A DNA stretch of 64,000 nt from an archaeon (GCA_043823195.1 JBDRAZ010000038.1:3592-67591), one strand, 5' to 3'; numbered from the stretch's first letter, positions 5,002-54,838 are shown. The notes: generated by a model not told the origin, from the sequence alone. A program made the numbers and translations.

Positions 5002-5817
5002 ATGCAACGATTGATATACTACCTCCTTGCCGGAATATTAAGCCTGTCTTCGGCAAAAGCGGGTGCCGAAAGCCCGCTTGACCGGATTGTCCAGAAGGCT
5101 TATGTACATGAGAAAGGTGATGAATGGCGTGATCACCTGTGGTCATCTGCATTCTTAACTCTTAGTGACTCATTTCTTCTTCAGCATGCAGACTATGAAG
5201 GTGAGCCTGAAAACCTGGCAGCCCAGACAAGATTTGCAGAAACTGTAGCCTATCAGGGAATTTATACTCCCCTCGTTGAAGGCAAAATCACCCCAGTATA
5301 CGCAGCCTTTGATATTGCAGGAACCCAGATAGCGCATAAGCTGTTTCCCAAGCTTGGCTTCGTTGAACCGTTTGTGGACAGGATAGCAGACATCACAGAG
5401 AGAAAGAATCTTAGGTTCCTTGCGTTAGTAACCGCCGGAACCATGGCAGCAGGTTATACGTTACCCAGACAGAGGGACCTGATAGAGATTGACGCTGGAG
5501 AACAGACTAACCCCAATAATGCCTGGCTTCATGTCGGCTTTTTTGCATATTATACATTCAGAACGTCGATGCTTCTTGAGCATGCCGGTTATGACAAGCA
5601 CCCTCCGGAATCGCTTGCGTGGAGAGTTGCTTTTGGCCTCGGCCTTGCGAAAGAACTGATCTATGACGGAACTGTGGGAAAGGGGCCGAGTGTAATAGAT
5701 GCCGGTGCTGACGCGCTGGGTGTCTGGATAGGGCATAAGGCTGCCAAAGTATACCGGGAGGGCAGAAATCTTACGGTCAGTCTAGTCCCTAATCTGAGGA
5801 TTACATATACGTTTTGA
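5002..5817 (+). CDS. secreted hypothetical protein
   Basis: MQRLIYYLLAGILSLSSAKAGAE is a signal peptide. The TGA stop codon abuts the left att repeat of the integrated element. Confidence 0.45.
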   Translation: MQRLIYYLLAGILSLSSAKAGAESPLDRIVQKAYVHEKGDEWRDHLWSSAFLTLSDSFLLQHADYEGEPENLAAQTRFAETVAYQGIYTPLVEGKITPVYAAFDIAGTQIAHKLFPKLGFVEPFVDRIADITERKNLRFLALVTAGTMAAGYTLPRQRDLIEIDAGEQTNPNNAWLHVGFFAYYTFRTSMLLEHAGYDKHPPESLAWRVAFGLGLAKELIYDGTVGKGPSVIDAGADALGVWIGHKAAKVYREGRNLTVSLVPNLRITYTF

Positions 5818-5831
5818 CGCCAGGCCCAGGA
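5817..5831 (+). repeat. attL-like 15-bp direct repeat (copy of tRNA-Ser 3' end)
   Basis: acgccaggcccagga is identical to 17734-17748. Confidence 0.7.
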
Positions 5832-5840
5832 ATGTGACCT

Positions 5841-6743
5841 TCAAGGGGTCTGGCTGGATGGCAGTAAACTCAATTTCTTACTACTTGCCTCCGGTTTTGT
5901 TTTCAATAATATAAGTATTTCCTTTTCACTGAATCCACGATGAACTAAGTTTGTACGAATATTCTCCAAAGATTCCCAAAGCATAGTATCAGTTAGTTTT
6001 CTGCTTCGAGCATTTCGCTCCAATCTACCTTTCAATTCATTGGCTGCGTATTGATTTAAAAGTGATATTTGTTTGTAAGTAGTTTCATCAAGCTTCTTAT
6101 CAATGGTCATTAAATATGAATATGTATTAGCAAAGGAAGATAGATTTATAGAATTGAGAATAAGGTCTATTCTAACATTTTCGTCGAGACTAGGGATAGT
6201 ATCTAAATGTTCATAAAGTCCTCTATAGATTCTTTTAACACTTATAGAATCTCTGAGATATTCTGCGAACAACTCCGAGGTGTAAATCAGAGCTTTGATT
6301 TCATTCCAGCGTAACATTTCATTTGGTGTTATATAACCTTCTTGAACCGATTCGTTACAAAATATGCTTCGAACAAATCTTGCCAATAAATGATTGAGTT
6401 GTGCTTGGCTGTCCTTATAATATCCACTGCCAAAGAATGAGCGGTCACCACGATCCCAAAAGATAAGATGAATTTTTTTGTATGTTGATACATTTCGAGG
6501 TATCCTATATTCGTAGGGGCTCCAAGGTCGATTTTTTTTATCAATGTAATCTGGAATTTTTCGCCTGTCAACCAACTTCTTTTTTATTAGAGGTTTCCTG
6601 GCTTTAGGGACGTTGTTTTGTTGAGACTTGAAAATGCCCTGTTTTAGAATCTGCTTTGTCCGAAGCCACCCGCCAGAGGTCAAATCATCATTAAGAGCCA
6701 ATGACTTAAGAAATGCAAATTCAAGCTCAGTTAGATGTTCCAC
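5841..6743 (-). CDS. hypothetical protein (element cargo, unknown function)
   Basis: 300-aa AT-rich ORF at the element edge with no recognisable motifs. Confidence 0.4.
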   Translation of the reverse strand: MEHLTELEFAFLKSLALNDDLTSGGWLRTKQILKQGIFKSQQNNVPKARKPLIKKKLVDRRKIPDYIDKKNRPWSPYEYRIPRNVSTYKKIHLIFWDRGDRSFFGSGYYKDSQAQLNHLLARFVRSIFCNESVQEGYITPNEMLRWNEIKALIYTSELFAEYLRDSISVKRIYRGLYEHLDTIPSLDENVRIDLILNSINLSSFANTYSYLMTIDKKLDETTYKQISLLNQYAANELKGRLERNARSRKLTDTMLWESLENIRTNLVHRGFSEKEILILLKTKPEASSKKLSLLPSSQTP

Positions 6744-6866
6744 AGTTTATATCATAATATCAACTAGTATATAAACTCATCCATAAATAATACAGCCAGA
6801 TTGGTTATGGCATTCCACAATTAATATGGGTCGGCATCTCGCATATTAAGGGGTATTTATAGGAGA

Positions 6867-7070
6867 TTGGTATCTGAGATGGTTAAGATGAACCTCAAGC
6901 TACGAAATCCAAGAAAAATAATCTCATATAACTACAGTTTCCTCATCACAATTCCACCCACCTGGCTGCGACATCATAAGATAGGTAAGGGGGATCATAT
7001 AGATTTTGAGATTGATAAGGAGCATAACTTGGTTTTGAAGCCTTATGGAGAGCATGATGAAACTAACTAA
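6867..7070 (+). CDS. AbrB/SpoVT (swapped-hairpin) type DNA-binding protein, putative regulator or antitoxin
   Basis: The 67-aa sequence LKLRNPRKIISYNYSFLITIPPTWLRHHKIGKGDHIDFEIDKEHNLVLKP matches the AbrB/MazE-like pattern (ISxxxxITIPxxxRxxxxIxxGDxV). Confidence 0.4.
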   Translation: MVSEMVKMNLKLRNPRKIISYNYSFLITIPPTWLRHHKIGKGDHIDFEIDKEHNLVLKPYGEHDETN

Positions 7071-7200
7071 GCTACCAGAACATATGGAGGAGCAACTACC
7101 TGAAGAATTAAAGGCAGTACTTGCTTTTCATAATCAAGCCAAAGGCTGAGGCGAAGGCCTCAGCCCCTATCACAGAACAGACACAAGTAATGTCTAGTTC

Positions 7201-9006
7201 TTGACTTATAAAAAACTTGTTAAAATGAATAATGAAGAAACCAAAGCAATCTTAGACACAAATAAGGAACTCTGTGCAAAAATGGACAAATACTATCAAA
7301 AGCTAGAGTCAGCATTTATGGGCGAATTGCAGAGAGTGGGGGTAACGGAGTTTGTTATTCAGAAAATTGCTGCAGATCTGCAGAAACTAGGCAGGCATCA
7401 CGATAAGCTGCTTGGATATGTAACTGCTTGGTATCCTATGTTGCTTGAGAATGTTCAAAGAATAGGTTCAAACACTAAACTACCTACTACTTCTTACTAC
7501 CCTACTACATCTAACTACAGACTACAAAGCTGGGGGATATACGATCCTTCCCGTCAGTTATATGTTGAGCAACTGACTGCTAACTTATTCATCTATAATT
7601 ACAGAGGAATTAAGGGAATAACCGAGAAGAAAATATCTCAGGATAAGCAGAGCAAACGGATAATTGAGTTTCTAAACATTGAGGATCAGGAACTGAAGTT
7701 TACAAAACCTGTCCAGGTGGCCAGCTACAATCGCCCAAGCTCTGAATTAGCATACCAATACATTGATGGAAAGTACAAACCAAGAGGTCTTGATTACATA
7801 ATCCAGGATATTGAAAAGATTCTGCTCGCTTTGTACGATTTCAAATTCCCAACGGATATTTCCATAATAAAGCTAGCCATTGGACAGAGTTACCTCATAC
7901 CTTTGTTTGAGGGAGTATTTTACTTGGGAATAGATGCAACAAAAGGCGGAGGCAAAACAACTTTGCTTGAGTTAGCCTGTTTTCTTATGCGGCATGGCAT
8001 AATGGGAGGAGACATCAGTGCCGCAGCATTACCTCGGATGGTCGATCAATTACAATTAAGCATAGCGGTTGATGAGATAGACCAGAAAATTGGAGAGAAG
8101 GCTCAGGAAGATATTACAGCCGTATTAAGGAAAGGGCAGCGCCGAGGTAATCCATACACACGTTGTGAAGGTCGTTCTCATATCCCAACATCTTATGATG
8201 TATTTGGCAGTCATCTCTACAGCTTCCGTTCTGATGTTGAGGACGCTTTCGGAAGTCGCACAATCCCAATACATGCCGCGAAATCTAGGGATAGTAGGTT
8301 ATCGGTTCTCAATCTTTACAAAGCGCAAGTTTTGAAACCCTTAGCGGATGAATTGTTTTTATGGGCAATTGATAACCTCCTTAAGATTCCTGTGGTGAGC
8401 TGTAGTAACGTAGTAGGGTGTAGCGGGACTTTAAGGGATAAGGATAGCGAACTTATCAGAGATCAGCTATTTAAAAAATTCACTGAGCATTTGGGAGACG
8501 ATCATGTTAAGTTGGTGAAAAAACTTTCAGGAAGAAATGCGGAACTTGCTTACATCTGTTGTGATGTGGCCAACAGACTTAATCTGGATGTGTTAAGCGA
8601 TCTAAATAATGTCATGACTTTAAAGGAAACAGATGAGATTGCTAACCAAGACTTTTATTTGGAAAGCCTTGAGCGGTTCCTTGGTGAAAAACACATGACC
8701 CTATCTAGTATCGACAAGAAAGAAAAATTCACCAAGAAAGATGGCAAATATGCAGCGTGTCTATTTTACCCAAAAAATCTACTTTATCAGGAATTTGTTC
8801 AGTCCCTTACTCAAAATAATGTTAGGACAATAGGCCATAAAAAGTTCAACAGCCTTTTGCGAGATTTGGGTTTTATAGAGAGGGACACTCTGCGGAATGT
8901 CAGAGTAGATGACATGCCTCGTCAATGCATCATATTTTCTGACAAGATATTGAACCGGATAGGTGTAGAGAAAGAAGAACAGATACTATCGGAGAATATA
9001 CAATGA
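7201..9006 (+). CDS. P-loop NTPase (~600 aa), putative replication/partition/packaging ATPase of the element
   Basis: Deviant Walker A GIDATKGGGKTTLLE and Walker-B-like SIAVDEID. No other recognisable domains. An alternative start is MNNEE at 7225. Confidence 0.5.
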   Translation: MTYKKLVKMNNEETKAILDTNKELCAKMDKYYQKLESAFMGELQRVGVTEFVIQKIAADLQKLGRHHDKLLGYVTAWYPMLLENVQRIGSNTKLPTTSYYPTTSNYRLQSWGIYDPSRQLYVEQLTANLFIYNYRGIKGITEKKISQDKQSKRIIEFLNIEDQELKFTKPVQVASYNRPSSELAYQYIDGKYKPRGLDYIIQDIEKILLALYDFKFPTDISIIKLAIGQSYLIPLFEGVFYLGIDATKGGGKTTLLELACFLMRHGIMGGDISAAALPRMVDQLQLSIAVDEIDQKIGEKAQEDITAVLRKGQRRGNPYTRCEGRSHIPTSYDVFGSHLYSFRSDVEDAFGSRTIPIHAAKSRDSRLSVLNLYKAQVLKPLADELFLWAIDNLLKIPVVSCSNVVGCSGTLRDKDSELIRDQLFKKFTEHLGDDHVKLVKKLSGRNAELAYICCDVANRLNLDVLSDLNNVMTLKETDEIANQDFYLESLERFLGEKHMTLSSIDKKEKFTKKDGKYAACLFYPKNLLYQEFVQSLTQNNVRTIGHKKFNSLLRDLGFIERDTLRNVRVDDMPRQCIIFSDKILNRIGVEKEEQILSENIQ

Positions 9007-9327
9007 GACCTGGCTTGCATAATAGAGAGCGGATTATGCTCTGCTTGAGCCACAGGCTGCAGGAATTGAAAGATAAAATCCGTACATATACAAAAGAGCG
9101 TGATGAGGTAGAGTCTAAATTGAGGCACAATCAAAGAGAAACACAAAATGACAAAAGATCGAGCGGGACCGCATAGCAAGTTTTTTGATGTGATCCCAGA
9201 AAAACAAAAGGAAACGGATGAAGCAGAAGATGACTGACAGAGGTATTCTGATTATCTATGTGCCATTATTGCTATCAGTCGGAGTCTTTTACTCGTGGAA
9301 AATCAACAAAATTTATGAGGTCGGAGG

Positions 9328-9651
9328 ATGACCGTCAGCGCTTATTTGCTCTCAATCGCCTTACTTTTTTTCATGGTGGTAGGGCTAACGGTTGCAGTTC
9401 AAAAGCTCATAGCAATGGTGCGACGGCTCCAGACACCCACTATATCGATCCATTATGATAAAGCAAGGCTCGACAAACTCGCCGCGACTATTGATAAGCT
9501 TGACCTGGAAAGTAAATTCATGTTGTTGCATCATCAATTTGGTGACGCAACAGCATTATTAAACCTCGAGTCTGGCCGGATACGTTTGGCGGGTATAGGA
9601 AAAGTACCGTCTCTTGAGGAGCCGGATGAACCGATGGATTATTCCGGTTGA
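9328..9651 (+). CDS. small membrane protein, hypothetical
   Basis: N-terminal TM segment LLSIALLFFMVVGLTVAV. It is followed by a GC-rich inverted repeat, gggggtattcttccccc. Confidence 0.3.
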   Translation: MTVSAYLLSIALLFFMVVGLTVAVQKLIAMVRRLQTPTISIHYDKARLDKLAATIDKLDLESKFMLLHHQFGDATALLNLESGRIRLAGIGKVPSLEEPDEPMDYSG

Positions 9652-10091
9652 TCTTGGGCAAGATACAAGTTAAGGGCGGGGGTATTCTTCCCCCTCGCAT
9701 AATAACAAGTAACATTTGATTAGCTTAGTGTGTGAACGCCGCCATTTTCCTATAGTACGTTAATTTTCCCCCTGCACTGCCTCCAAAACGGCATTTCTAT
9801 GTAATCCGAACCATTTTCGGTCATAATCCAATAAGAGTGTTAAATTTTGGTCAGATTGAAAGGTTTTCGAACAACCTGAAAGAATTATCAGAATCATTGA
9901 GCAAAACATAATAAGATCAGACAACACCTTGTTTATTGGGCGGCATAACCGGTACGACGAGAGAAGTCCGCGGGGTTTGGGCTCAGACCCGATTTATTTC
10001 TTAATTAGAATGATCACTGGACACTGGACATGTTGGTGTAGGGTATATATATGAACAGTCTACACTTCTTTGTTAATTCATAGAATATTAA

Positions 10092-10667
10092 GTGGAGGAA
10101 CCAAAAATGACTGGTCGAGACGATGTGTATGAAATATTAGCTGCACAAGCTGAAATCGAACCTTGCCCTGCGTGTGGCCATACAATGAAAGATACGTATG
10201 GACATTGCGAGTGTTGTGGACAGATAGGTGATATTGAGCCTAGTTCTGGTCCAGACAGAAATATGGCAAGAGACGACAGAGTGTGCGAGATTATTTCAGT
10301 AATGCACGCTAGATATAAATTAGAAGATAAAGGATTTAAAGTAGTTAGTATAAAAAGGAAGCCCGCCAGAGGGCCGGATGAGTTAAATAAAGATTACATT
10401 GACAAATTGCTTGAAGATTTTTCAGGTAGCCAAGAGGAAGTGCTTAGGTTATTAAATGAAAATCTTAAAGGTATTCCTGACCTTCTCTGCCTAAAAGATG
10501 GTGTACTATCTTTTGTTGAAGTCAAATCAAATAAATCACAACTAACAGGTGATCAGAAGAAAGTTATGAAATTATTAAAAGATAAAGGATACAATGCACG
10601 TGTCATGAAGTTTGGTGTCACATTCAATGTTGAAGACATAGATAAAAATTGTAACCCAAGCGTGTAG
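10092..10667 (+). CDS. VRR-NUC family PD-(D/E)xK nuclease with N-terminal zinc ribbon
   Basis: N-terminal CPACGH...CECCG zinc ribbon. The C-terminal GIPDLLCLKDGVLSFVEVKSNKSQLTGDQKKV matches the VRR-NUC pattern G-PDL...E-K...Q. Confidence 0.6.
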   Translation: MEEPKMTGRDDVYEILAAQAEIEPCPACGHTMKDTYGHCECCGQIGDIEPSSGPDRNMARDDRVCEIISVMHARYKLEDKGFKVVSIKRKPARGPDELNKDYIDKLLEDFSGSQEEVLRLLNENLKGIPDLLCLKDGVLSFVEVKSNKSQLTGDQKKVMKLLKDKGYNARVMKFGVTFNVEDIDKNCNPSV

Positions 10668-10769
10668 AATTCAAATATGGGTACTGCTTCTGGTACTTGC
10701 TATAGATATGCACTAGTATTTACTTACGGAATCTGCAAATGTATATAACTATTAGCATATTATTAGACC

Positions 10770-11627
10770 ATGATGATTAATATATCCACAATTAACGAAT
10801 ACACATTCTGCCCATATCAGGCATATAATTCTCTGAACAAAGAGAACATAACTAAACTGTTACCAAGCGATTCCTTTGTTGCCAGGAATGATTCTTTTCT
10901 AGAAGATCTTAAAAACAATTTCTACGATTACATTAAAACTGGAAAACTACTGAGTCCCGATAAGAGAACCGTAAAAAGTATGATGCAATCAAATACTGTT
11001 AGTCATATCTCAGAGTTAGGTGTAATTAGTGAGAAGGAGGGGCTACAAGGGTATTGTGATGAAGCTCAAGTTTCATCAAATGGAATTACACTGATAGAAT
11101 ATAAAACTACCAAGCAAGAAAGATCCCATGACTTCAATAATGATCCCGCCATTAATCAGTTAATTGCATATGCGCATTCTTTTCAGGAATATTTTGATGC
11201 ACAGGCAACAATAACTCTAAGAGTGATTAGGATATTTTTACGTGATAAGGTGAGTTTTATAAATAGATGCCTTCTGAATCCAATTGGTCATGATGGATCA
11301 TCAAGTTTAGGAGAGTCCGAAACAAGCGATAATATCAATTGGGCCGCATCTATGGAAATCATATATGAAAAAGCTTACAAGTTAGAGTTGTTGAACCGTG
11401 TTAAGCCAATCATACAACGAATCAAAAAAGCTGATTTTAGTCATCAGGATAATCGTTCAAGATGCAAGAAATGTAAATACAAGTATAATTGTTGCGATAG
11501 TCTGGCGTATGTCCCAGGAGTTCTGAGAAGCCAATTACAGGTAGATTGGTCGAAAAAATGCGGTAAATGCGATAATAATAAACGCTGTGCAAGAGTGATT
11601 AGAAAACAGATGGGTTTAATCGGCTAG
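10770..11627 (+). CDS. Cas4/RecB-like (DUF83-type) PD-(D/E)xK nuclease with Fe-S cluster cysteines, standalone
   Basis: N-terminal YTFCPYQAY (Cas4-like first Cys). Central ITLIEYKTTK (ExK motif). C-terminal CKKCKYKYNCC = CX2CX5C, plus an extra KCGKCDNNKRC. No cas genes or CRISPR array nearby. Confidence 0.55.
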   Translation: MMINISTINEYTFCPYQAYNSLNKENITKLLPSDSFVARNDSFLEDLKNNFYDYIKTGKLLSPDKRTVKSMMQSNTVSHISELGVISEKEGLQGYCDEAQVSSNGITLIEYKTTKQERSHDFNNDPAINQLIAYAHSFQEYFDAQATITLRVIRIFLRDKVSFINRCLLNPIGHDGSSSLGESETSDNINWAASMEIIYEKAYKLELLNRVKPIIQRIKKADFSHQDNRSRCKKCKYKYNCCDSLAYVPGVLRSQLQVDWSKKCGKCDNNKRCARVIRKQMGLIG

Positions 11628-11690
11628 GTGGGGGTATAGATTCAAATGTGTTACATTTTTCTTTCAGATGTATTACATTTGAGTTTTTTG

Positions 11691-11969
11691 TCACTCAACA
11701 TCACCATATCCGCTATGTCTGTTCCTTCTTATATTGGCAATAACGGTCTTAGAAATTAGGCCTATTGAACTGTCATGTATGACTTTTGAGCCTATCGACG
11801 CTAATTGTTTCAATGCTGTGCTATCTTTGGGTTGTTGAAGGAACTTTTTATTCTTTTGAAGCTCTGCATATTCCTGTTTATTCATCGCTACAGTGAATAC
11901 TATCCGCTTTCCTTTCTTCTTTTCTTCATCTAGTGTATAGTTAACAAATGGTATTCTTTTAATTGTCAT
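11691..11969 (-). CDS. hypothetical small protein
   Basis: 92-aa AT-rich ORF with no motifs. Confidence 0.3.
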   Translation of the reverse strand: MTIKRIPFVNYTLDEEKKKGKRIVFTVAMNKQEYAELQKNKKFLQQPKDSTALKQLASIGSKVIHDSSIGLISKTVIANIRRNRHSGYGDVE

Positions 11970-12575
11970 CGGAGGCTTTGTTATTTTGTTCTTTCTCTAC
12001 CAAACTCTCTTGTTCCTTTCGCCGTCTGTTATCATCCGGATTTTCTTGTAAGTTCCCATGAATGTTCTGGATCAGGAAAAAATGTTATTGCTAAATCATA
12101 TGCATCACTATATGTAGATTCTACCTGAACTAACCAACCACCTGGAACTAACAGTCTATATGTGCCGCTACTTACTGTTTCCCACTTTCTTGGATATGGT
12201 TTCATATTATCACCCTTTCTTTAAAATATATTTTTAGTATATAAAAATTTGGTTCGGGCCGGAATCAAAGAAATTCCTTGAAAATATGTTGATCTCGTTT
12301 GACGGATGTTGTTGGCAACTGAGATTTTGTACATAGACATGAAATACTAATTTACGATACCAGATAGAATTAATATATTACTGATCTGGCCAATAGACCC
12401 GTCAATTGCAGAAATCTATAAATAGTTGCATCACCCCATAAAGCAACCAGGGGGTACATTCTATGGCAGTATGCCATAGTTGAGGAAGTAAGCTGAAGGA
12501 ATACGATGATCTGTGGAAACAAATAGATGAGAAAACAAGAAAATTTAGAAATGTCTAGTCACATTATATTTATAA

Positions 12576-13781
12576 ATGGAAGTAAACAATAAAACAGACA
12601 CATTTGAGTTGATATACTCTTTCTTCATGTTGGTGTTTGGAATATCTGTGATTCTTTGTTTTATTGTTGTAGTTGCGTATATGGTTATATTGTTTAACTT
12701 GATCTTTTTACTTTTTTGCTGGCCAATTTTGGCAGGAATATGGATGGGAATTTTTAAGAATTCAGAGAAGAGATACGAGATTGAATTAAACTCATCTGAT
12801 GCAAAAAAATTATGTATGATTATTAATAAAGTTACAACAAAAACAGGACTTCCGAAACCATACAAAATCATTTTATCGGAAGGCAGTGGGGTTGCAGTAA
12901 CCGGATTATTTAGAAGGAAGATAATAATAGGATTAGCAACTCTACAACTATTAAATGAGAATGATTTGCTGGCTATAATTGCACATGAGTATGGTCACTT
13001 TGCCAAAAAAGATACCATTTTGGGTTATTTTACTTATAGAATCCAGCTTTTTTTTGAATTGCAGCGTGATATTAATGAGCAAAATTTGGCTGTTTCGTTG
13101 TCAATAATTGTCTATCTTCCTACTTGGTTATTCTTCGCATTCCTATCAGACTATTATGCGTTAATTAGTTTATGGTTTAGTAGGAGAATTGAATATCGGG
13201 CAGATAAATTTGCAGCAGATTTTGTTGGAGCAAAAGAATTTGCTGATGCACTTGTCAAATATAGCGTTATAAGTGAGATATTTGAGAATGTAATCCCTAA
13301 ACATATTTTACATTTTCTACAACAGAATAAACAATTAGTGAATATTTATGATTACATGAATCCAATTTATACAGAAGAGAATGTTAAAAAATCTTTCAAG
13401 GAAGTTTTATCAAGCGAAAGTAGTTGGTGGTCAACACATCCAAGCATTAGTGAACGATTGGAAGCTCTTAATGCTAAATCTGTTGATGTAAATATCAGCA
13501 CAAATCAGGAAGACTTCATTGATGATCAGAAAAAATATGAAGAAAAAGCAAGTGAAGTATTGAGTCAAAAAATGGCTTTTTGGGCACACCTTGCATCTGC
13601 TCAACAATACGTAGAGTCTGAAGATATTGAGCCTGAAGATGAAGAAGATAACCAAGTAAATCAACAAAGTGCATATTTTTGTACAAAGTGCGGGAATCAA
13701 GTAAGCGAAGATGATATTCATTGCAAAAAATGTAAGCAACTGCTTGCTGTTGATGGAGCCTGTGTAAGGAGGGAATTTTAA
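12576..13781 (+). CDS. membrane Zn-metalloprotease, M48/M56-like (HExxH), with C-terminal zinc ribbon
   Basis: N-terminal TM helices. AIIAHEYGHFAKKD is the HExxH motif typical of M48 (Ste24/HtpX-like). The C-terminus has CTKCGNQVSEDDIHCKKCKQ. Confidence 0.55.
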   Translation: MEVNNKTDTFELIYSFFMLVFGISVILCFIVVVAYMVILFNLIFLLFCWPILAGIWMGIFKNSEKRYEIELNSSDAKKLCMIINKVTTKTGLPKPYKIILSEGSGVAVTGLFRRKIIIGLATLQLLNENDLLAIIAHEYGHFAKKDTILGYFTYRIQLFFELQRDINEQNLAVSLSIIVYLPTWLFFAFLSDYYALISLWFSRRIEYRADKFAADFVGAKEFADALVKYSVISEIFENVIPKHILHFLQQNKQLVNIYDYMNPIYTEENVKKSFKEVLSSESSWWSTHPSISERLEALNAKSVDVNISTNQEDFIDDQKKYEEKASEVLSQKMAFWAHLASAQQYVESEDIEPEDEEDNQVNQQSAYFCTKCGNQVSEDDIHCKKCKQLLAVDGACVRREF

Positions 13782-14350
13782 TGAAAATTTCTTTTAAAGT
13801 CACAAGCTATTATGCGAAGAATAAAAAAATATCCAAACTTCATGGAACCTTATTTATGATCGCAGGATTTATTATTTTAGTATTTATCTCCTACGGGCTA
13901 TATCAATTAAATACAAATTTTGGTTCAATATCTGAAGATAGGATCTCAGGCGATCATTCATCTGATTCTGGATACTATGTTGATGTAGATTGTTCAAATA
14001 TAAGTACTACAACGGGTAGAATGAATCTGGCTTCCTCATTTTTCATCGGGGAAGAGTCTGAATATGAATCTGCAAAGAGCAAATATTATTCAACCTCAAA
14101 TATTGATTTGAAATTAGAATCCTATGAACAATGGGAAGAATCTTACCGCTCATTAATCTCTAAGTTTAATGGTATGATATTTGCATATAATGAAGACTCG
14201 TTATATTTTGATTATTGTTATAATTATTCTGCATGGGAGGATATTGAAACAAAAAGGGCATTTCTTGATAGTGAAGAGATTATTATTGATACAGAATATG
14301 AAAAATTAAAACCCGAAGCTGAAGCAGAGGGATATATTTTTTATGAATGA
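13781..14350 (+). CDS. membrane-anchored hypothetical protein
   Basis: Start overlaps the stop of the M48 gene. It has one N-terminal TM helix. Confidence 0.35.
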   Translation: MKISFKVTSYYAKNKKISKLHGTLFMIAGFIILVFISYGLYQLNTNFGSISEDRISGDHSSDSGYYVDVDCSNISTTTGRMNLASSFFIGEESEYESAKSKYYSTSNIDLKLESYEQWEESYRSLISKFNGMIFAYNEDSLYFDYCYNYSAWEDIETKRAFLDSEEIIIDTEYEKLKPEAEAEGYIFYE

Positions 14351-14408
14351 TTTAAACGGAATTCAATAAATAGCAATACTTTTAAATTCCAATAAACTTA
14401 GTTTTAAT

Positions 14409-14648
14409 ATGTCGTTCATAAACAAAATATTTCAAGTTTGGTATTATTTTTTTGGATTCGTTGTAGGTATAATCTTTTTCTATCTTGGAAAATCAAGAAT
14501 TTCGATGGGTATAAGTTCAATAAGAACATCTGACCCATACACATCTCATTTTATGAATGTTGGATTATTGTATGTTCAGACTAGTTTGTTAATCTTGATT
14601 GTACTTACTATTGGTATTACCTACTCTTTAACAAAATCCAAAAAATAA
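14409..14648 (+). CDS. small integral membrane protein
   Basis: 79 aa with two predicted hydrophobic helices. Confidence 0.3.
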   Translation: MSFINKIFQVWYYFFGFVVGIIFFYLGKSRISMGISSIRTSDPYTSHFMNVGLLYVQTSLLILIVLTIGITYSLTKSKK

Positions 14649-14973
14649 TCTTACGGGCTATGGCGGACTTTGATTTTCACCTTCGAAATGTTGCACTCTC
14701 GCTACGCTCGCTAGGTTAAATTGGGCTAAGTTAAACTCTGGACTCCCCCTTTCTTATACCTTATACCTCTCCCGTGCGGGGCACAAATAAACACCAGTTT
14801 CTTTATCCAGACTTAACCGCTCGATAAGATTAGGTCCTTTTCAAGAGGGTGTTTTTTATAGGTAGTAAAGGTGCCAGTAGTAGCACATTGTGTGCCGACA
14901 TAAAGATTTAAGCAAGGAATCGTGACACAAAAAAGTGTAATATTCTATGATTACTGAACTTTTAGCTTTATTA

Positions 14974-15321
14974 TTACTTTTTTAATTTAATAATCGATAT
15001 TTTTATTTCTGTAAATATATCGTAACACAAATTTCGGTTAGAAAATATACTGTATAAGGATTCAACAAGAAGAATCACAGAAATTATTTCCCAGTGATCC
15101 AATAGAAAACCTACGATTTCATTCCAATAATTGCCAAAGTGATTTAATCCGTCTGGATCTTGATCTACCATTAGTAATACTTCATATTCCCAAGAAGGTT
15201 GCTTCCACCATAGATAGATTATTACAATTGCTTGGACTATTCCACGTTCTCGATTTCTTTCCATCAAATTTAGACAGTCACATTTAGCTAATATATATAT
15301 CGATAGATGGATTTTATTCAA
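14974..15321 (-). CDS. hypothetical protein
   Basis: 115-aa ORF with no motifs. Confidence 0.3.
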   Translation of the reverse strand: MNKIHLSIYILAKCDCLNLMERNRERGIVQAIVIIYLWWKQPSWEYEVLLMVDQDPDGLNHFGNYWNEIVGFLLDHWEIISVILLVESLYSIFSNRNLCYDIFTEIKISIIKLKK

Positions 15322-15382
15322 GTCCTAGCCATAGATTTATATAATCCAAAGTATACAACCTAAATGCTTAAAGGATATTAAT

Positions 15383-16171
15383 ATGAATCGAAAAATATTT
15401 GCTCTATTTGTATTGTCCATTATGTTGATGACTGGGTGTGTTTCTCAAGAGTCTTTCAAGACTCTTCAAACTCAATACGATGAATTGAACACTGAAAAAT
15501 CTGAGCTTGAGGTATTGAACGAAAATTTAACTGCTGAAAAATCTGAGCTTCAAGCATCAAACAACGATTTGGCTGCTGAAAAATCTGAGCTTGAGGTATT
15601 GAACGAAAATTTAACTGCTGAAAAATCTGAGCTTGATACTCAATTAACCAAGAATTTTGTTTTTCTCAGGGAGTATTCTATTGCCACGAATAATATCCAC
15701 GTAGCTTCAAGTTATTTTGAATTGGGATCTACGAATCTTAATACAGGAAATTTTTATGTTCTCACAGAAGGGTATTATTATGAAGTTGCAATTTCTTTTT
15801 ATGAAGCTGGAAAGCGACCTGTTTTAGATGCTAAAGAATTACTAACCAAAGCTATAGTAAAGTTGGAAAATATTGAGGAGGATGCACCTAATTCATTTTT
15901 TAAGGAAGATGTTAAAAATAGAATTGAACAGGCCAGGCTATTATTGGCATCATGCGACAATTTGTATTCTTTGCTAGATTATGAGGGTCAGCATTTATAT
16001 GAAGTTAATTTTGGCACAGCGGCCAAGGCAACGGAGTACTTTAATAGATACAATAGTGTGGTTACAGATTATAATTCAAATCTGAAAACACTAAGTGATA
16101 TTCAAAACAAAATTGACTTGAATTGGGACCAGGATTGGTATCCGACATTTCAAGAAGAATCAGTCATTTAG
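15383..16171 (+). CDS. lipoprotein with tandem coiled-coil repeats
   Basis: Signal peptide plus lipobox-like LMTGC. Repeated L(T/A)AEKSEL(E/Q/D) heptad-like units are encoded by near-perfect nucleotide repeats. Confidence 0.5.
   Translation: MNRKIFALFVLSIMLMTGCVSQESFKTLQTQYDELNTEKSELEVLNENLTAEKSELQASNNDLAAEKSELEVLNENLTAEKSELDTQLTKNFVFLREYSIATNNIHVASSYFELGSTNLNTGNFYVLTEGYYYEVAISFYEAGKRPVLDAKELLTKAIVKLENIEEDAPNSFFKEDVKNRIEQARLLLASCDNLYSLLDYEGQHLYEVNFGTAAKATEYFNRYNSVVTDYNSNLKTLSDIQNKIDLNWDQDWYPTFQEESVI
15492..15635 (+). repeat. 59-bp perfect direct duplicate (two copies 27 bp apart) inside the lipoprotein gene
   Basis: ctgaaaaatctgagcttgaggtattgaacgaaaatttaactgctgaaaaatctgagctt occurs at 15492-15550 and 15577-15635. 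The unit gctgaaaaatctgagctt occurs four times. Confidence 0.7.
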
Positions 16172-16370
16172 TTTATTTCGTCATCAATTAATTGCCGTTT
16201 AATTCTTGTTCTGTAAATCGGCTCGTTACTGATTATTCCATCTCCAATAGTATCCCGGTCTTTTTCTGGGCTTTGTTTCCCCTCTTCCCTACATTCTTTT
16301 TTCCTTTCAGGCTAGCCCTGAGCGTACTGAGATGCTTCGTCAGTGCTAACTCTTGAATAGAGGGCGATAA

Positions 16371-17642
16371 TCAATTCTCTTCTCCAAGGAACATCTTCTT
16401 AAACTCTTCAAACTGCTGTCGTTTGACTGGATCAGCCATGATCTCTGCGTAGACCTTGAGTCGTTTGTCAGTCTCGTTCTTGACTATCTCCTGGTCTTGG
16501 ATGGCTGTTTCCATCTTGAGAGGTTTGTAGCATCTGAAGCAGTACCTCTCCCTGGGATTGTTTAGGGTTCCGCAGACACAGAGGACGGGTTTATCGGTCT
16601 GGTCTTCCTTGGTGCTGATACCGTTCAGTTTCATAATCACATCTTGAAGTTGCTTGGTGCAGAGATGGACATATACTCTCACTTGCTTAGAACCGATCCG
16701 CCACCCCATATATTTGCAGAGGATGGCTTCTGTTACGTGAGGTGCCAGTATTGTAGCTCTCGAGTGCCGGAACCAGTGCCAGTTGTGCCTTTTATCTACT
16801 CCTGCTGCTTTGAAACATCTGTCAATAAGCTTCTGCCCTCCCCTGTGTACTAATGGCTTATGTAACCGATAATTCGAATCAGAGAGCCAGAGGTAGGTAT
16901 TGTTGCTTTCCCTGTATGGATGGATCTCAAGATACCGGATTAAACGGGGGACTGACTTGGTAACATAGACTATCCGTTGTCCGGTCTTGCCATCTGGTAC
17001 ATGTATCTCAGCATAATTCTCTTTTATCCGTATGTCCCCCACCTTGAGATTCAGGAACTCCCCGGCCCTGCATCCGGTTTCATGTAGCAGCATAAGAAAG
17101 GCTTTCTCCTTGTGCGTCCGGGCGCCTTTCTCAACTGCAGAGTCGATGTCATCCTCTGTAATTATGGTGTTGGGATCTGCTTGTCTTTGCTTGCAGCTGC
17201 TGGAAACCTCTTTCTCCAGGAAGCGATACAGCTTTCTTGCCTCGATTCGTTGATCCTCAAGCTTATTGAATAGTCTTTCATCTTCATCTTTATACCAGGA
17301 ATAAAACTGTTTCAGAACTCTCCTATAGTCTGCTCTGGTTGCATCGGACTTTTCCCCTAACCGGTTAATGAAGGATACTAGAGTCAGACAATCCTTTTTA
17401 TTTAGTCGATCAAGGTCCTTATCCAAGTTCAGAGCGCACTTCAGCCATCTGCAGATGTTCCGCAACTGGGCAGATAATTTTGCAACCCTGAGCTCCCCTG
17501 AGCCCGTAGAAAACACATAGTTATGGAACTCAGTTATCAACTCCTTGTTTCTTAGGCTGATCTTCTCAGCCTTCAATAACTTCAGCTCTTTCCCATAGGC
17601 CTTATGCCTATCAGGATATATCTCAAGTCTGCTTTCCTTCAT
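16371..17642 (-). CDS. int: tyrosine recombinase / integrase of the integrated element
   Basis: Catalytic-domain residues are present: R in CRAGEFLNLK, HxxR in HWFRHSRAT, and a Tyr-containing RVYVHL segment. There is an N-terminal SAM-like domain and a C-terminal CVCG...CFRC zinc ribbon. The gene is immediately adjacent to the tRNA-Ser att site. Confidence 0.8.
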   Translation of the reverse strand: MKESRLEIYPDRHKAYGKELKLLKAEKISLRNKELITEFHNYVFSTGSGELRVAKLSAQLRNICRWLKCALNLDKDLDRLNKKDCLTLVSFINRLGEKSDATRADYRRVLKQFYSWYKDEDERLFNKLEDQRIEARKLYRFLEKEVSSSCKQRQADPNTIITEDDIDSAVEKGARTHKEKAFLMLLHETGCRAGEFLNLKVGDIRIKENYAEIHVPDGKTGQRIVYVTKSVPRLIRYLEIHPYRESNNTYLWLSDSNYRLHKPLVHRGGQKLIDRCFKAAGVDKRHNWHWFRHSRATILAPHVTEAILCKYMGWRIGSKQVRVYVHLCTKQLQDVIMKLNGISTKEDQTDKPVLCVCGTLNNPRERYCFRCYKPLKMETAIQDQEIVKNETDKRLKVYAEIMADPVKRQQFEEFKKMFLGEEN

Positions 17643-17733
17643 TTTTTGTTTCGTAAGAATTAGAGGTTATTAAAGCCGTTAATACAAGGAACATCATGCC
17701 ATATTAGATATGGCAGTGCACCTTGATATTCCC

Positions 17734-17748
17734 ACGCCAGGCCCAGGA
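17734..17748 (+). repeat. attR-like 15-bp direct repeat within tRNA-Ser 3' end
   Basis: acgccaggcccagga covers the discriminator, the acceptor 3' strand and part of the T-stem of the minus-strand tRNA-Ser. Confidence 0.7.
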
Positions 17749-17832
17749 TTTGAACCTGGATGTCCCGGAGGACACTCGCTTTCTTTAGTATATTCGAGGC
17801 GAGCGCGTTAAGCCGGATTCCGCCAACCTGGC
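17735..17832 (-). tRNA. tRNA-Ser (anticodon CGA) with 12-nt intron at canonical 37/38 position
   Basis: Manual fold of the reverse complement. Acceptor GCCAGGU/GCCUGGC. 3-bp D-stem with long D-loop (type II). Anticodon stem CUCGC/GCGAG, loop CUCGAA with inserted UAUACUAAAGAA. Long variable arm GUCC-UCCG-GGAC. T-arm CCAGGUUCAAAUCCUGG. No encoded CCA. Confidence 0.7.
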
Positions 17833-17862
17833 ACAGCATGAACTGGTGAATGGTCGTATAAA

Positions 17863-19415: not shown

Positions 19416-19766
19416 ATGCCATACAAAAAAAATCCAAGATTTCATATCATCAACGGCCTGTGCGCAGCGGGCCTGCTTGTCTTTTCCATGCTGGACATTT
19501 TCGGCGTGATGCAATCAGATGTGTATCTTGCTGTTGCGCTGGCAATAAGCCTCTATTTCCTGGGATCTGTTGCGTATTTCCTGATCTACGAATATGAACC
19601 AAAGGCCAGGGTTATGCCAATTTTCTGGATTGCCATTTGTCCCCTGGTATTATTCGGGCTGATTACCGGGTCATTCCAGCTGAGGTATATAAATACAATA
19701 ATACTGATAATCTACGGGATCACGGCTGTTGCCTATTCATGGAACTGCGCTAAAAGAAAGAAGTGA
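19416..19766 (+). CDS. small integral membrane protein
   Basis: 116 aa with four hydrophobic segments. Confidence 0.4.
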   Translation: MPYKKNPRFHIINGLCAAGLLVFSMLDIFGVMQSDVYLAVALAISLYFLGSVAYFLIYEYEPKARVMPIFWIAICPLVLFGLITGSFQLRYINTIILIIYGITAVAYSWNCAKRKK

Positions 19767-20397
19767 GGTCTGTCAGGGGTTTTATAATATCTGCATTATC
19801 GTTGCCAGTATCATTGATAGCCGGAGGTACCTTGTAAATTTCCAGATCCCCGGGGAATGGTGTGAGCATGGATTTGAGCCTTTGGGGCGCGCCTTGCTGC
19901 AGCCAGTGGGTTTCTTCCTCCCGGCCCAGGATGGCGGGCATCCTGTCATGGACCTGCCGCACAACCGAATTTGGCTCAACAGTTATGATGGCAAAGGCCA
20001 GCCTATCCTGCCATCTGTCATATATTCCTGCAAAGGCAAAAGGCAGGCCATCTTTTTGCATTATCCTATACGGAACCTTGCCCGCCGGCGTTAATTTCCA
20101 CTCATAGAAGCCATCTGCAATAACCAGGCAGCGCTTATTTTTAAAGGCATCCCGGTATGCCGGCTTTTCTTCAAGAGTCTCAGCCCTTGCATTAATCATG
20201 CCCATTGCGTTCTTTGCCCAGCAGGGAGTCATGCCCCAGGTGCACATTGAAAGTGTTTTGGGGGATTCAGACAGGACAACCGGGCATTCCTGCGAAGGGG
20301 CTATGTTGTACCTTGGTGAAAGCTCAAAAGGGATGCCTATATTGAACCGTTCAGCAATGATATCCTTCCTCGCTGTCATGGAAAAACGGCCGCACAT
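19750..20397 (-). CDS. SOS-response-associated peptidase (SRAP; YedK/HMCES, DUF159) abasic-site processing protein
   Basis: N-terminus MCGRFSMT has the catalytic Cys2. Conserved YNIAPSQ and GFYEW motifs. Confidence 0.8.
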   Translation of the reverse strand: MCGRFSMTARKDIIAERFNIGIPFELSPRYNIAPSQECPVVLSESPKTLSMCTWGMTPCWAKNAMGMINARAETLEEKPAYRDAFKNKRCLVIADGFYEWKLTPAGKVPYRIMQKDGLPFAFAGIYDRWQDRLAFAIITVEPNSVVRQVHDRMPAILGREEETHWLQQGAPQRLKSMLTPFPGDLEIYKVPPAINDTGNDNADIIKPLTDLTSFF

Positions 20398-21567: not shown

Positions 21568-21664
21568 TGCCCCGCACGGGATTCGAACCCGTGTCCCAGC
21601 CTCGAGAGGGCTGGATGATTGGTTATCCAACGGTTTAGCCGTTTCCGGACTACACCAGCGGGGC
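21568..21664 (-). tRNA. tRNA-Glu (anticodon CUC) with apparent 22-nt non-canonical intron in the D-loop
   Basis: Reverse complement folds as follows. Acceptor GCCCCGC/GCGGGGC plus discriminator A. T-arm ACGGGUUCGAAUCCCGU. Anticodon stem-loop CAGCC-CUCUCGA-GGCUG. The D-arm UGGUGUAGUCCGG / CCAAUCAUC is interrupted by AAACGGCUAAACCGUUGGAUAA. Confidence 0.5.
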
Positions 21665-52693: not shown

Positions 52694-53757
52694 AGCGATA
52701 ACTCCTTCTGTATGCCCTGGTTCTGGATTACCTGGCCTGCGTTGCAGATCCTGCAATAGTGCGGCAGGCTTCCGCCCATAATGCTTTGCCGGATGCTGCT
52801 GAAATGTGAGCCATACCAGATGGACCTGAGAGACTCGTTTTTGACATTCAGCTTTGGGTCGTCACAGATGCAGCAGGGCCCGGCATTCCCGTCAACCTTG
52901 ACTACAAGATGGTACCAGGGCTCGTAGCAGGGGATTGAGAGGAAGCCGCGCCCCCTGCAGGCCAATACCTCATCCATTCTGTTGCTGTTCTCGATGTGCT
53001 GTTTTGCGAGATGGCTGACATTTGTCGCTATCCCGTATCTGGCTGCCAGCCTGTGGGCTTCGTCCTGATGGGCAGAGACGCCTGTAATGTCGTCGCGCAA
53101 CTTCAGTTCATTGCCAATCTCTGAGTGGACGGTCAGGGGCTCAAAGCTTACAATCTCGCACCCAACTGAATGCGCAAACTCTATCATCTGCGAGAGCTTT
53201 CCGTAATTAACATTGGAAAGGACAGTATTGAATGCAACAACCGGGAATCTGGTTTTATTTGCTTTTTTAGCCTGGTCCAGGAGCTTCAGGCTGCGCTCAA
53301 CCTTGCGGAAAGTGCCGGTTCCCCGCAGGAAATCATTCGTTGCAGCATCCGGTCCGTCTATGCTAAAGGTAACCTTGTCCCACCTGATCCCAACAAGAGC
53401 AGATATGAGCTTTTCTGTAAAGAGCGTGCCATTTGTTGTCATAGAGCCATTCATGCCATGTTCCTTTATGCGCTTCAATAATGCCGGGGTGGCCCGCCGC
53501 ATGAGTGGCTCGCCGCCGCCGGTAATCTCCCAGTGCACTGCCCCCAGATCCTTCCCCTCATCAATAAGCTCAAGGAGCCTCTTGTCGCTCAGCTGATAGT
53601 GCCTGCTGTCAAGCCTGCCCTCAAACCGCTCATTCCTCTGCCAGCAGCTTTTGCACCTGAGGTTGCAGTAATCTGTGGGGCTGAGGTCTATTATGTACGG
53701 GGGTGCAAGTGTCCCCTTTGCGCATGATACCAGCCTATTGATTATTTCTGACTGCAT
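52678..53757 (-). CDS. radical SAM/SPASM enzyme, array member D
   Basis: IDLSPTDYCNLRCKSCW. C-terminal PCYEPWY...GPCCICDD...IWYGSHF...YCRICN. Confidence 0.8.
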   Translation of the reverse strand: MQSEIINRLVSCAKGTLAPPYIIDLSPTDYCNLRCKSCWQRNERFEGRLDSRHYQLSDKRLLELIDEGKDLGAVHWEITGGGEPLMRRATPALLKRIKEHGMNGSMTTNGTLFTEKLISALVGIRWDKVTFSIDGPDAATNDFLRGTGTFRKVERSLKLLDQAKKANKTRFPVVAFNTVLSNVNYGKLSQMIEFAHSVGCEIVSFEPLTVHSEIGNELKLRDDITGVSAHQDEAHRLAARYGIATNVSHLAKQHIENSNRMDEVLACRGRGFLSIPCYEPWYHLVVKVDGNAGPCCICDDPKLNVKNESLRSIWYGSHFSSIRQSIMGGSLPHYCRICNAGQVIQNQGIQKELSLCITR

Positions 53758-54838
53758 TTCTCAGCATACCCCTGATCTGCCTGTTGGACGCAACTGTCCC
53801 GGGATTGCACTGCCTGCAATAATCCAGCAATTCGCCCCTCAATAGCCGCTCCCGTACAAGGTTAAAGTGCCTGCCCTGCCAGATATCGGCCAATGATTTG
53901 TCATGAACATACTCGCCGCTTTCATCAAACATGCAGCACGGTCCGGCGCGCCCGTTTGGCCTTATAACCATGTTATGGAAAGGCTCATAGCAGGCCGCCG
54001 ACAGCAGGCCGCCCCCATCCTGCTGCTTGAGATCCCCCTCTATGACCTTGTCCATTTCATTGGTCTTGTCCACAACTTCGCAGCTGAGGTCTGCCAGGTT
54101 GTATTCCAGCCCCAGCCTGTCGCAGAGCGCAGCTGCTTTTGGCCTGAGCCTCTGAAACTCCGCCTGCTCATCTTTTGTCATCTTAAGGCGCTTGCCCAAA
54201 TCAGTAAACACCGAGACATTGACGATCGGCTCAAAGAATATGTTTGCCGCACCGATGGTGTGGGCAAGCTGCACCATCTCCACTATCTGTGCGTGGTTCC
54301 TGTTGCACACCACATAGTGTATGCATATCTTGGGAACTGCCATGCCGGACCTGCCCTTGAGCAGGGAAAACTGCCTGATTGCGCCAACGGTCTTGTCAAA
54401 GCAGCCCCGGTCGTTCCTGAGGTACTCGTGCGTCTCCCTGTCAGGAGAATCCAGGCTGAAGATGACCTCATCCCATCCTGATTCAATCATGGCCACGGCA
54501 TCGGTCTCCTGCAGGAGTGTGCCGTTGGTAATCAGTGTGCCACGCATTCCATGGCCCTTTATCTGCCGCATAATCTTAAGGAATGCCTCTTTGCGGCACA
54601 ACGGCTCACCCCCTCCGGTAACTGTAACCTCTTTAACCCCCATATCCGCCGCCTCATCGATAATGGCTGCGTACCTCTGGTCTGAAATCTCATTATCATA
54701 GCTGACCCTCTCGGTATCCTGCTGCCAGCAGAACCTGCAGTGAAGGTTGCACCGTTCAGTGGGATTGATCTGCAGCCTGACAGGTCCGGGCCTGGATCCC
54801 GGCCATCCTGCAAGGCGTTCAACTGTTGCATTCATCAT
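53735..54838 (-). CDS. radical SAM/SPASM enzyme, array member E
   Basis: VERLAGWPG...LQINPTERCNLHCRFCW. C-terminal ACYEPFH...GPCCMFDE...IWQGRHF...YCRQCN. Start at internal MMNATVERLAGW. Confidence 0.8.
   Translation of the reverse strand: MMNATVERLAGWPGSRPGPVRLQINPTERCNLHCRFCWQQDTERVSYDNEISDQRYAAIIDEAADMGVKEVTVTGGGEPLCRKEAFLKIMRQIKGHGMRGTLITNGTLLQETDAVAMIESGWDEVIFSLDSPDRETHEYLRNDRGCFDKTVGAIRQFSLLKGRSGMAVPKICIHYVVCNRNHAQIVEMVQLAHTIGAANIFFEPIVNVSVFTDLGKRLKMTKDEQAEFQRLRPKAAALCDRLGLEYNLADLSCEVVDKTNEMDKVIEGDLKQQDGGGLLSAACYEPFHNMVIRPNGRAGPCCMFDESGEYVHDKSLADIWQGRHFNLVRERLLRGELLDYCRQCNPGTVASNRQIRGMLRNAVRNNQ

Follow-up and report, generated by a model that had tools for sequence, protein, structure and literature searches.

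Archaeal integration is reportedly classed, in a scheme that goes back to She and colleagues in 2004, into a pNOB8 type, in which the integrase gene stays intact, and an SSV type, in which the gene is split. Among Thaumarchaeota, integrated elements have short attachment (att) sites with a median length of 17 bp, their targets include intron-containing tRNA genes, and the dominant class is the "cryptic integrated element", which carries MCM or primpol-S3H replication genes (Krupovic et al. 2019, PMC6563490). Here we analyzed a stretch of 64,000 nt from an archaeon (GCA_043823195.1 JBDRAZ010000038.1:3592-67591), hereafter called the window, with positions counted from its first letter. The block at 5817-17748 is, with a probability that we estimate at roughly 0.7, a cryptic integrated element that lies in an uncultured archaeon's chromosome, is integrative plasmid-like and belongs to the "pNOB8" type with its intact integrase. 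It carries an integrase together with a replication protein and no detected virion or conjugation hallmark gene, which is the combination by which cryptic integrated elements are recognized.

The earlier note on this DNA, made from the sequence alone, had described an approximately 11.9-kb low-GC block bracketed by identical 15-mers, the right one being the 3' end of an intact intron-containing tRNA-Ser, and had proposed site-specific integration at this tRNA end. The att repeats, the tRNA, the break in guanine-cytosine (GC) content and the adjoining integrase all bear this out. The block between the repeats measures 11,932 bp and has a GC content of 0.372, against 0.507 in the left flank and 0.502 in the right flank. 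The 15-mer ACGCCAGGCCCAGGA has exactly two copies in the window, both in the same strand orientation: the distal core at 5817-5831 (attL in the window orientation) and the proximal core at 17734-17748 (attR), neither of which is assigned a strand as a feature. No third copy was found in the window with up to two mismatches allowed. Around the two cores the similarity runs on imperfectly to 24 nt, with 83% identity. With introns allowed, ARAGORN placed an intact tRNA-Ser(CGA) with a 12-nt intron, the integration target, at 17734..17833 on the minus strand. The right-hand 15-mer comprises the 3' half of the T-stem, the 3' strand of the acceptor stem and the discriminator base of this tRNA, and the left-hand copy is a displaced copy of the same 3' end. 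The left copy does adjoin a host gene (5002-5817, 271 amino acids (aa)), but the note's wording that it follows directly after the stop codon needs correction, since the repeat starts on the final base of the TGA (5815-5817) and thus overlaps it by 1 nt.

By itself, the pair of 15-mers is weak evidence for att sites. The window contains 8 exact direct repeats of at least 15 nt, when about 1.9 would be expected under uniform composition, and such pairs arise by chance or paralogy. This favors a reading without any mobile element, in which a chance 15-mer repeat lies around a native low-GC region. What makes the 15-mer meaningful is that it is identical to the tRNA 3' end, and the chance of this particular tRNA-end 15-mer recurring in the window is about 6e-5. 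Moreover, the 15-mer coincides with the GC break and abuts the integrase, and relatives of the integrase show the same arrangement at the same tRNA. The tRNA-end identity with its P of about 6e-5 and the arrangement at tRNA-Ser(CGA) in the related loci L001 and L013, described below, effectively refute the chance-repeat reading, to which we assign next to no probability.

The two edges of the block differ in sharpness. On the left, GC content falls over 400 nt from 0.52 through 0.41 to 0.30. The integrase gene, whose composition is host-like (GC 0.46; GC at third codon positions (GC3) 0.54), blurs the right edge. GC3 ranges from 0.23 to 0.47 in the cargo genes, with the lowest values in the membrane module, and from 0.45 to 0.65 in host genes. 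The element looks mosaic, or else the integrase gene looks ameliorated.

The target tRNA was missed both by ARAGORN at its default settings and by Rfam at the gathering threshold. Automated island finders would therefore overlook this att site. Intron-containing tRNA targets escape default scans, which is a practical caution for island finding. Elsewhere in the window, a tRNA-Glu(CTC) with a 23-nt intron (21568-21664, minus strand) was likewise seen only by ARAGORN with introns allowed, and was missed by default ARAGORN and by Rfam.

Next to the tRNA, the gene at 16371..17642 (minus strand) encodes a full-length tyrosine integrase of 423 aa (PF00589, E 4e-17), which is 100% identical to NCBI MFH1849247.1, named "MAG: site-specific integrase [archaeon]" (MAG, metagenome-assembled genome) and encoded on a contig of 107,585 bp. 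The catalytic residues R192, K219, H289, R292, W314 and Y324 do not vary across an alignment of 34 family members, the window protein among them, and neither do the four cysteines of a C-terminal zinc ribbon. The open reading frame (ORF) is uninterrupted and lies wholly outside the att core at 17734-17748; therefore the arrangement is that of an intact integrase and not of the SSV split gene. This upholds two further statements of the note, namely that a full-length, non-split integrase stands beside the tRNA and that the arrangement is of the pNOB8 type, with the gene intact after integration. SSV-type integration is ruled out by the single uninterrupted 423-aa ORF, with no two flanking fragments.

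The label "XerA-like", which the note had also applied, holds for the catalytic domain but not for orthology. The closest solved structures to the catalytic domain are those of XerA, the archaeal chromosome-dimer resolvase (PDB 5HXY and 4A8E, E 1.5e-19). A XerA orthologue is nevertheless ruled out, as NCBIfam NF040815 scores 71.8 bits against an equivalog cut-off of 220. The window integrase is about 130 aa longer than XerA, with N-terminal and zinc-ribbon extensions, and its gene lies inside a low-GC element by a tRNA att site, which is the behavior of an integrase and not that of dif resolution. Between the att core and the start of the integrase gene, a segment at 17643..17733 (minus strand) contains a CCATAT..ATATGG palindrome, a TATA-like box and a leader that is conserved in an alignment of nine loci and in comparison with L001. 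These approximately 90 nt from the tRNA end to the integrase can be aligned across the nine integrase-family loci, and the segment is likely to combine the attP arm with the integrase promoter.

A search of 5.8 billion proteins gave 230 relatives of the integrase at E <= 0.001. Among the matches listed (120 of the 230), identity to the integrase is 44-65%, and the named ones are mostly Woesearchaeota or Nanoarchaeota. These two labels also predominate among the 43 integrase-family loci that were found by scanning GTDB species genomes. At about 13-14 of the 43 loci, the integrase directly follows a tRNA that has the same orientation, in most cases a tRNA-Ser isoacceptor. In L001, the integrase (65% identity) comes directly after a tRNA-Ser(CGA) with a 13-nt intron. 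In L013, a 624-kb Woesearchaeota contig, the integrase (49% identity) also sits after tRNA-Ser(CGA); the terminal 16 nt of this tRNA, AATCCTGGGCCTGGCG, overlap the window core, are repeated 9.6 kb downstream and bound an element of about 9.6 kb. At a further locus (L027), a 14-nt repeat bounds about 9.1 kb. Several integrase contigs (L014, L019, L020, L022 and others) are labelled "Omnitrophota bacterium" or "uncultured Methanosarcinales archaeon", labels that probably result from mis-binning or placeholder taxonomy.

The flanks of the block encode aEF-2, aEF-1alpha, PPDK, PGK, glycosyltransferases and radical-SAM proteins, and these archaeal genes, together with the two intron-containing tRNAs, identify the host as an archaeon. 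An orthologue of the left-flank gene, at 45% identity, occurs in a "Nanoarchaeota archaeon" MAG, and the acceptor stem and T-arm of the tRNA-Ser are identical to those in L013. Combined with the names of the integrase relatives, these two matches indicate that the host is probably an uncultured DPANN archaeon of the Woesearchaeota/Nanoarchaeota type.

The replication protein is encoded at 7201..9006 (plus strand). It is a P-loop NTPase of 601 aa with the Walker A motif GGGKT, listed at NCBI as hypothetical protein ABH879_03550, and it has no sequence match in Pfam, in NCBIfam or, with a profile as the query, in PDB. A word-indexed search returned 55 homologues, mostly on contigs of 2-25 kb. 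The Walker A and Walker B motifs are invariant, and several of the homologues begin with a fused PrimPol domain (PF09250) at the N-terminus. With clusters counted at 50% identity, an exhaustive profile search put the size of the family at about 170 (169 clusters at E <= 1e-30); at E <= 1e-10 it found 1,289. An AlphaFold model built from 38 sequences reached a mean predicted local distance difference test (pLDDT) score of 84.5. Among solved structures, Foldseek matched this model to MCM, the African swine fever virus (ASFV) PrimPol-helicase, adeno-associated virus Rep40, PriRep1 and ORC/Cdc6; among viral models, it matched phage primase-helicases (DUF927, DUF3987, VirE and Toprim-fused), with a best E of 3.5e-19. 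The matches to MCM, the ASFV PrimPol-helicase, Rep40 and the phage primase-helicases had a probability of 1.0. Given its fold matches to MCM and to primase-helicases, the modelled protein is a replicative helicase of the primase-associated AAA+/superfamily 3 kind, with a predicted activity.

Homologues of this helicase are found on both free and integrated elements. Two contigs are probably complete circular episomes. The first (L005; GCA_041692815.1 JACGJH010002268.1) has a 127-bp terminal overlap, measures about 12.3 kb and carries an integrase and a resolvase in addition to the helicase homologue. The second (L055; Logan SRR20958180_22323) has a 30-bp terminal overlap, measures about 10.3 kb and carries a PrimPol-helicase plus an integrase-like gene. 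Two other homologues lie in integrase-bearing elements, one by a tRNA-Gln (L002) and one by a tRNA-Tyr with archaeal host genes flanking (L006). The L013 element encodes a 623-aa protein whose ATPase core is distantly homologous to the window helicase (hhalign 90.8%, E 1e-6). Overall, the helicase-bearing elements share almost nothing besides the helicase and distantly related integrases. The note had closed by offering a cryptic integrative plasmid and a defence or anti-defence island as alternatives. We favor the former because the NTPase is a replicative helicase with relatives on circular contigs of 10-12 kb.

Some relatives also carry a separate gene near the helicase that matches the N-terminal extension of a fused homologue (L005 3622-4665 and L006 5482-6003); the gene in L006 is directly upstream of the helicase and has a DnaG-type zinc ribbon. 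Such comparisons suggest that split and fused primase-helicase variants exist inside one family. In the window element, a split-primase search found no ORF that matches the N-terminal extensions of the fused homologues. The helicase profile had no match in IMG/VR, and the helicase is essentially absent from INPHARED and PLSDB, where it gave weak partial matches only. A GC-rich hairpin with a 13-bp stem (7140..7169, no strand) lies in the AT-rich gap between the helicase gene and the preceding regulator gene, and this hairpin may be a candidate origin, operator or regulatory element.

The regulator gene (6867..7070, plus strand) encodes a 67-aa DNA-binding protein of the AbrB/MazE/SpoVT type (PF04014, E 5.6e-6, above cut-off). 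Its homologues were found by tblastn in five elements of the same integrase family (L040, L016, L027, L015 and L033), and it is likely to be a transcriptional regulator. To its left, a 300-aa ORF (5841..6743, minus strand) matched nothing in Pfam, PHROGs, NCBIfam or PADLOC; its N-terminal 90 aa or so are weakly similar to an ORF in L019 (tblastn E 2e-6), and its single-sequence AlphaFold model, with a pLDDT of 36, is unusable. To the right of the helicase gene lies an ORF of 107 aa with an N-terminal transmembrane segment and no Pfam or PHROGs match (9328..9651, plus strand).

The earlier note had listed two nucleases, a large NTPase and a protease as the cargo, and we recovered all of them. 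The first nuclease (10092..10667, plus strand) is a VRR-NUC protein (PF08774, E 1.4e-7) with a PD...EVK motif and an N-terminal zinc ribbon, which also matches the PHROG "Holliday junction resolvase" at E 2.8e-9. The second (10770..11627, plus strand) is a Cas4-like PD-(D/E)XK nuclease (PF12705, E 7e-7), in which an N-terminal cysteine and a C-terminal CxxCx5C form a 4Fe-4S pattern. Two nucleases and a protease could belong to a locus whose main role is defence or anti-defence, with an integrase cassette as its carrier, as could the matches of the Cas4-like protein to PADLOC Cas4 models (E 5e-10). Interference with CRISPR adaptation has been proposed as a role of solo Cas4 genes that mobile elements carry. 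However, PADLOC found no complete defence system, with no match for 9 of the 10 proteins and partial Cas4-like matches to a single one, on which ground a known complete anti-phage defence system was rejected. The Cas4 equivalog TIGR00372 reaches 23 bits, under its cut-off of 65. The largest gene of the block is the replication helicase, and VRR-NUC and Cas4-like nucleases are common as DNA-processing genes on mobile elements. Because the PADLOC matches are only sub-threshold and Cas4-like, this second option of the note is unsupported, and we consider it very improbable.

The AT-richest part of the element, at 12.5-16.2 kb, contains the M48 protease, the membrane proteins and a lipoprotein. 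The protease gene (12576..13781, plus strand) encodes an HtpX-like zinc metalloprotease of the membrane with transmembrane segments, a HEYGH motif and a C-terminal zinc ribbon (PF01435, E 4e-21). A homologue with 44% identity adjoins the integrase in L032, and, as far as sequence comparison goes, the M48 protease repeatedly accompanies this integrase family as a passenger. The next two genes encode a 189-aa protein predicted to be a single-pass membrane protein (13781..14350, plus strand) and a 79-aa protein with two hydrophobic helices and no PHROG or Pfam match (14409..14648, plus strand). A 262-aa putative lipoprotein follows (15383..16171, plus strand), with a signal peptide, the sequence LMTGC and matches to a lipoprotein-type N-terminus. 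Its gene contains a 42-nt tandem repeat at 15492-15636 (3.5 copies, 80% matches), which encodes 14-aa coiled-coil repeats (…LNENLTAEKSELEV…). Between the nucleases and the protease, a 92-aa ORF (11691..11969, minus strand) has no family match, and a 57-aa ORF from the ORF scan (12032..12205, minus strand) is of uncertain coding status. A scan for bacterial promoters and terminators performed no better than on shuffles.

The membrane proteins, the lipoprotein and the M48 protease could also be regarded as virion or morphogenesis components like those of spindle-shaped or pleomorphic viruses, in which case the block would be a provirus or a satellite of an undescribed archaeal virus. Its size and its layout of an integrase plus a single helicase fit small temperate archaeal viruses, and the 79-aa protein with its two hydrophobic helices presumably resembles spindle-virus capsid proteins. 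About half of the ORFs are unannotated, which leaves room for this reading. In nanohaloarchaea, tyrosine integrases are found in spindle-shaped viruses and primase-helicases in the satellites of these viruses (preprint 10.1101/2025.02.15.638363). Nevertheless, scans of Pfam, PHROGs and NCBIfam, whose sensitivity for archaeal viruses is limited, recognized no capsid, packaging or conjugation family, as the note had stated for capsid and conjugation genes. The sole match to a structural or packaging type was a coiled-coil artefact (E 0.009). A single small two-helix protein without a second ATPase does not fit the module for morphogenesis that has been reported from spindle viruses of nanohaloarchaea. 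Nothing besides the helicase and the integrase is common to the related elements, IMG/VR contains essentially no members of the helicase, integrase and M48 families, and no positive evidence speaks for a virus. We therefore consider a provirus or satellite doubtful. Still less probable is its more specific form, an integrated undescribed temperate virus or satellite of a DPANN archaeon that takes its particle or envelope proteins from the membrane module at 12.5-16.2 kb and replicates via a helicase without a Pfam, NCBIfam or PHROGs model.

For the cryptic integrated element that we prefer, the following mechanism can be proposed. The integrase would recombine the 15-bp core of the circular element (attP) with the identical tRNA 3' end (attB), regenerating the tRNA and leaving the integrase gene intact, and the reverse reaction would release a circle of 11.9 kb. 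For its replication, the episome would rely on the primase-associated-type helicase that it encodes (7201-9006), with the AbrB-like regulator probably in control. As no primase domain is detectable in the element, we propose that host primase and polymerase would be recruited. The VRR-NUC and Cas4-like nucleases would most likely act on intermediates of replication and recombination, by processing or resolving them, and the block at 12.5-16.2 kb would be accessory cargo acting at the cell envelope.

Several observations weigh against this interpretation. The predicted attB junction CGTTTTGACGCCAGGCCCAGGATTTGAACC, as an exact pattern, is absent from the JGI metagenome collection, and the predicted attP junction ATTCCCACGCCAGGCCCAGGAATGTGACC, likewise as an exact pattern, is absent from IMG/VR. 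The primase domain is lacking both in the helicase, which has no PF09250, and among the other element ORFs, and no replication origin was identified in the element. The coding density of the element is only about 0.8. The host-like GC3 of the integrase gene, set against the differing GC3 of the cargo, is unexplained. About half of the ORFs show no detectable homology, and unrecognized virion proteins are possible among them. Finally, the host lineage is inferred from names given to relatives and not from phylogeny.

The mobility of this particular copy is something that we infer, since neither an empty attB nor a circular attP junction was found. A scan of genome contigs with the left-flank protein (5002-5817) found nothing, and orthologues of the left-flank gene (P0177, P0180 and P0183) are non-syntenic, lying in unrelated contexts without a tRNA. 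A pattern search with the tRNA 3' end returned a single unoccupied tRNA, which is non-syntenic and belongs to another genome (L054 270-386; JGI Ga0209514_10000053). This is a tRNA-Ser(CGA) with a longer intron whose 25-nt 3' end is identical to that of the window tRNA; no integrase lies within 1.1 kb downstream of it, so it is a potential unoccupied target.

The missing excised form and empty site could also mean that the block is an immobilized relic, which integrated by the proposed mechanism and is no longer able to excise or replicate. The helicase without the primase partner that is fused or adjacent in relatives, the coding density with its several long intergenic gaps, and the host-like composition of the integrase gene, which suggests long residence, are in agreement with such a relic. 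By contrast, the two att cores match exactly, the integrase is of full length and keeps all its catalytic residues along with the conserved region upstream, the larger ORFs of the element are all uninterrupted, and the GC3 of the cargo is still strongly unlike that of the host. Taken together, a relic appears unlikely, although less so than any of the other alternatives considered here.

Some further observations concern the flanks. About 2 kb from the insertion site, the host encodes an SOS-response-associated peptidase (SRAP; 19750-20397, minus strand; PF02586, E 4e-64). At about 49-62 kb, exact repeats of 15-18 nt, for example GGCTCGCCGCCGCCGG, occur at 53507, 60593 and 61687 (and at 54722/60721) in minus-strand ORFs of similar size, which suggests a cluster of paralogous host genes. 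An orthologue of the left-flank gene with 50% identity was seen in ENA ERZ26166982 contig_8 (L007) among bacterial-looking neighbors (GlnE, P-II, an IS3-type transposase and a PIN toxin), and the secreted protein that it encodes may have undergone inter-domain transfer.

Descriptions of the mobile elements that DPANN archaea carry are still sparse. The present locus ties together a clade of integrases that occurs in MAGs mostly labelled Woesearchaeota or Nanoarchaeota and is often located at a tRNA, mostly tRNA-Ser, with an unannotated helicase family and a recurrent M48 passenger. As a marker of such elements in both small circular and integrated form, the helicase family could be used to search for others. 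The element is real but ordinary in kind; it is mainly the unannotated helicase family that makes it notable, and the current understanding of how such elements work is unchanged by it.

In comparison with known systems, the element resembles the pNOB8 type in that its att core lies outside the integrase gene, a likeness of arrangement only and not of integrase sequence. It is about one quarter of the size of pNOB8, from which it presumably also differs in having no conjugation genes. The window helicase, over residues of about 110-590, resembles in fold the PrimPol-helicases (the pRN1 ORF904 type; DUF927, DUF3987, VirE and D5-like), and its direct homologues carry an N-terminal PF09250 or an adjacent primase-like gene. 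Unlike them, the window helicase lacks a primase domain, and unlike the PrimPol-helicases it has no Pfam or PDB sequence match. The closest overall resemblance is to the cryptic integrated elements of Thaumarchaeota (PMC6563490), which also combine a tyrosine integrase with short att repeats (15 bp here, median 17 bp there), insert at tRNA 3' ends, intron-containing tRNAs included, and carry one replication protein (there MCM, Orc1 or primpol-S3H) among otherwise unknown genes and no viral or conjugative hallmark. The window element differs from them in its probable DPANN host, in a helicase whose family is not modelled in Pfam or NCBIfam, in the C-terminal zinc ribbon of its integrase and in its M48 protease cargo.

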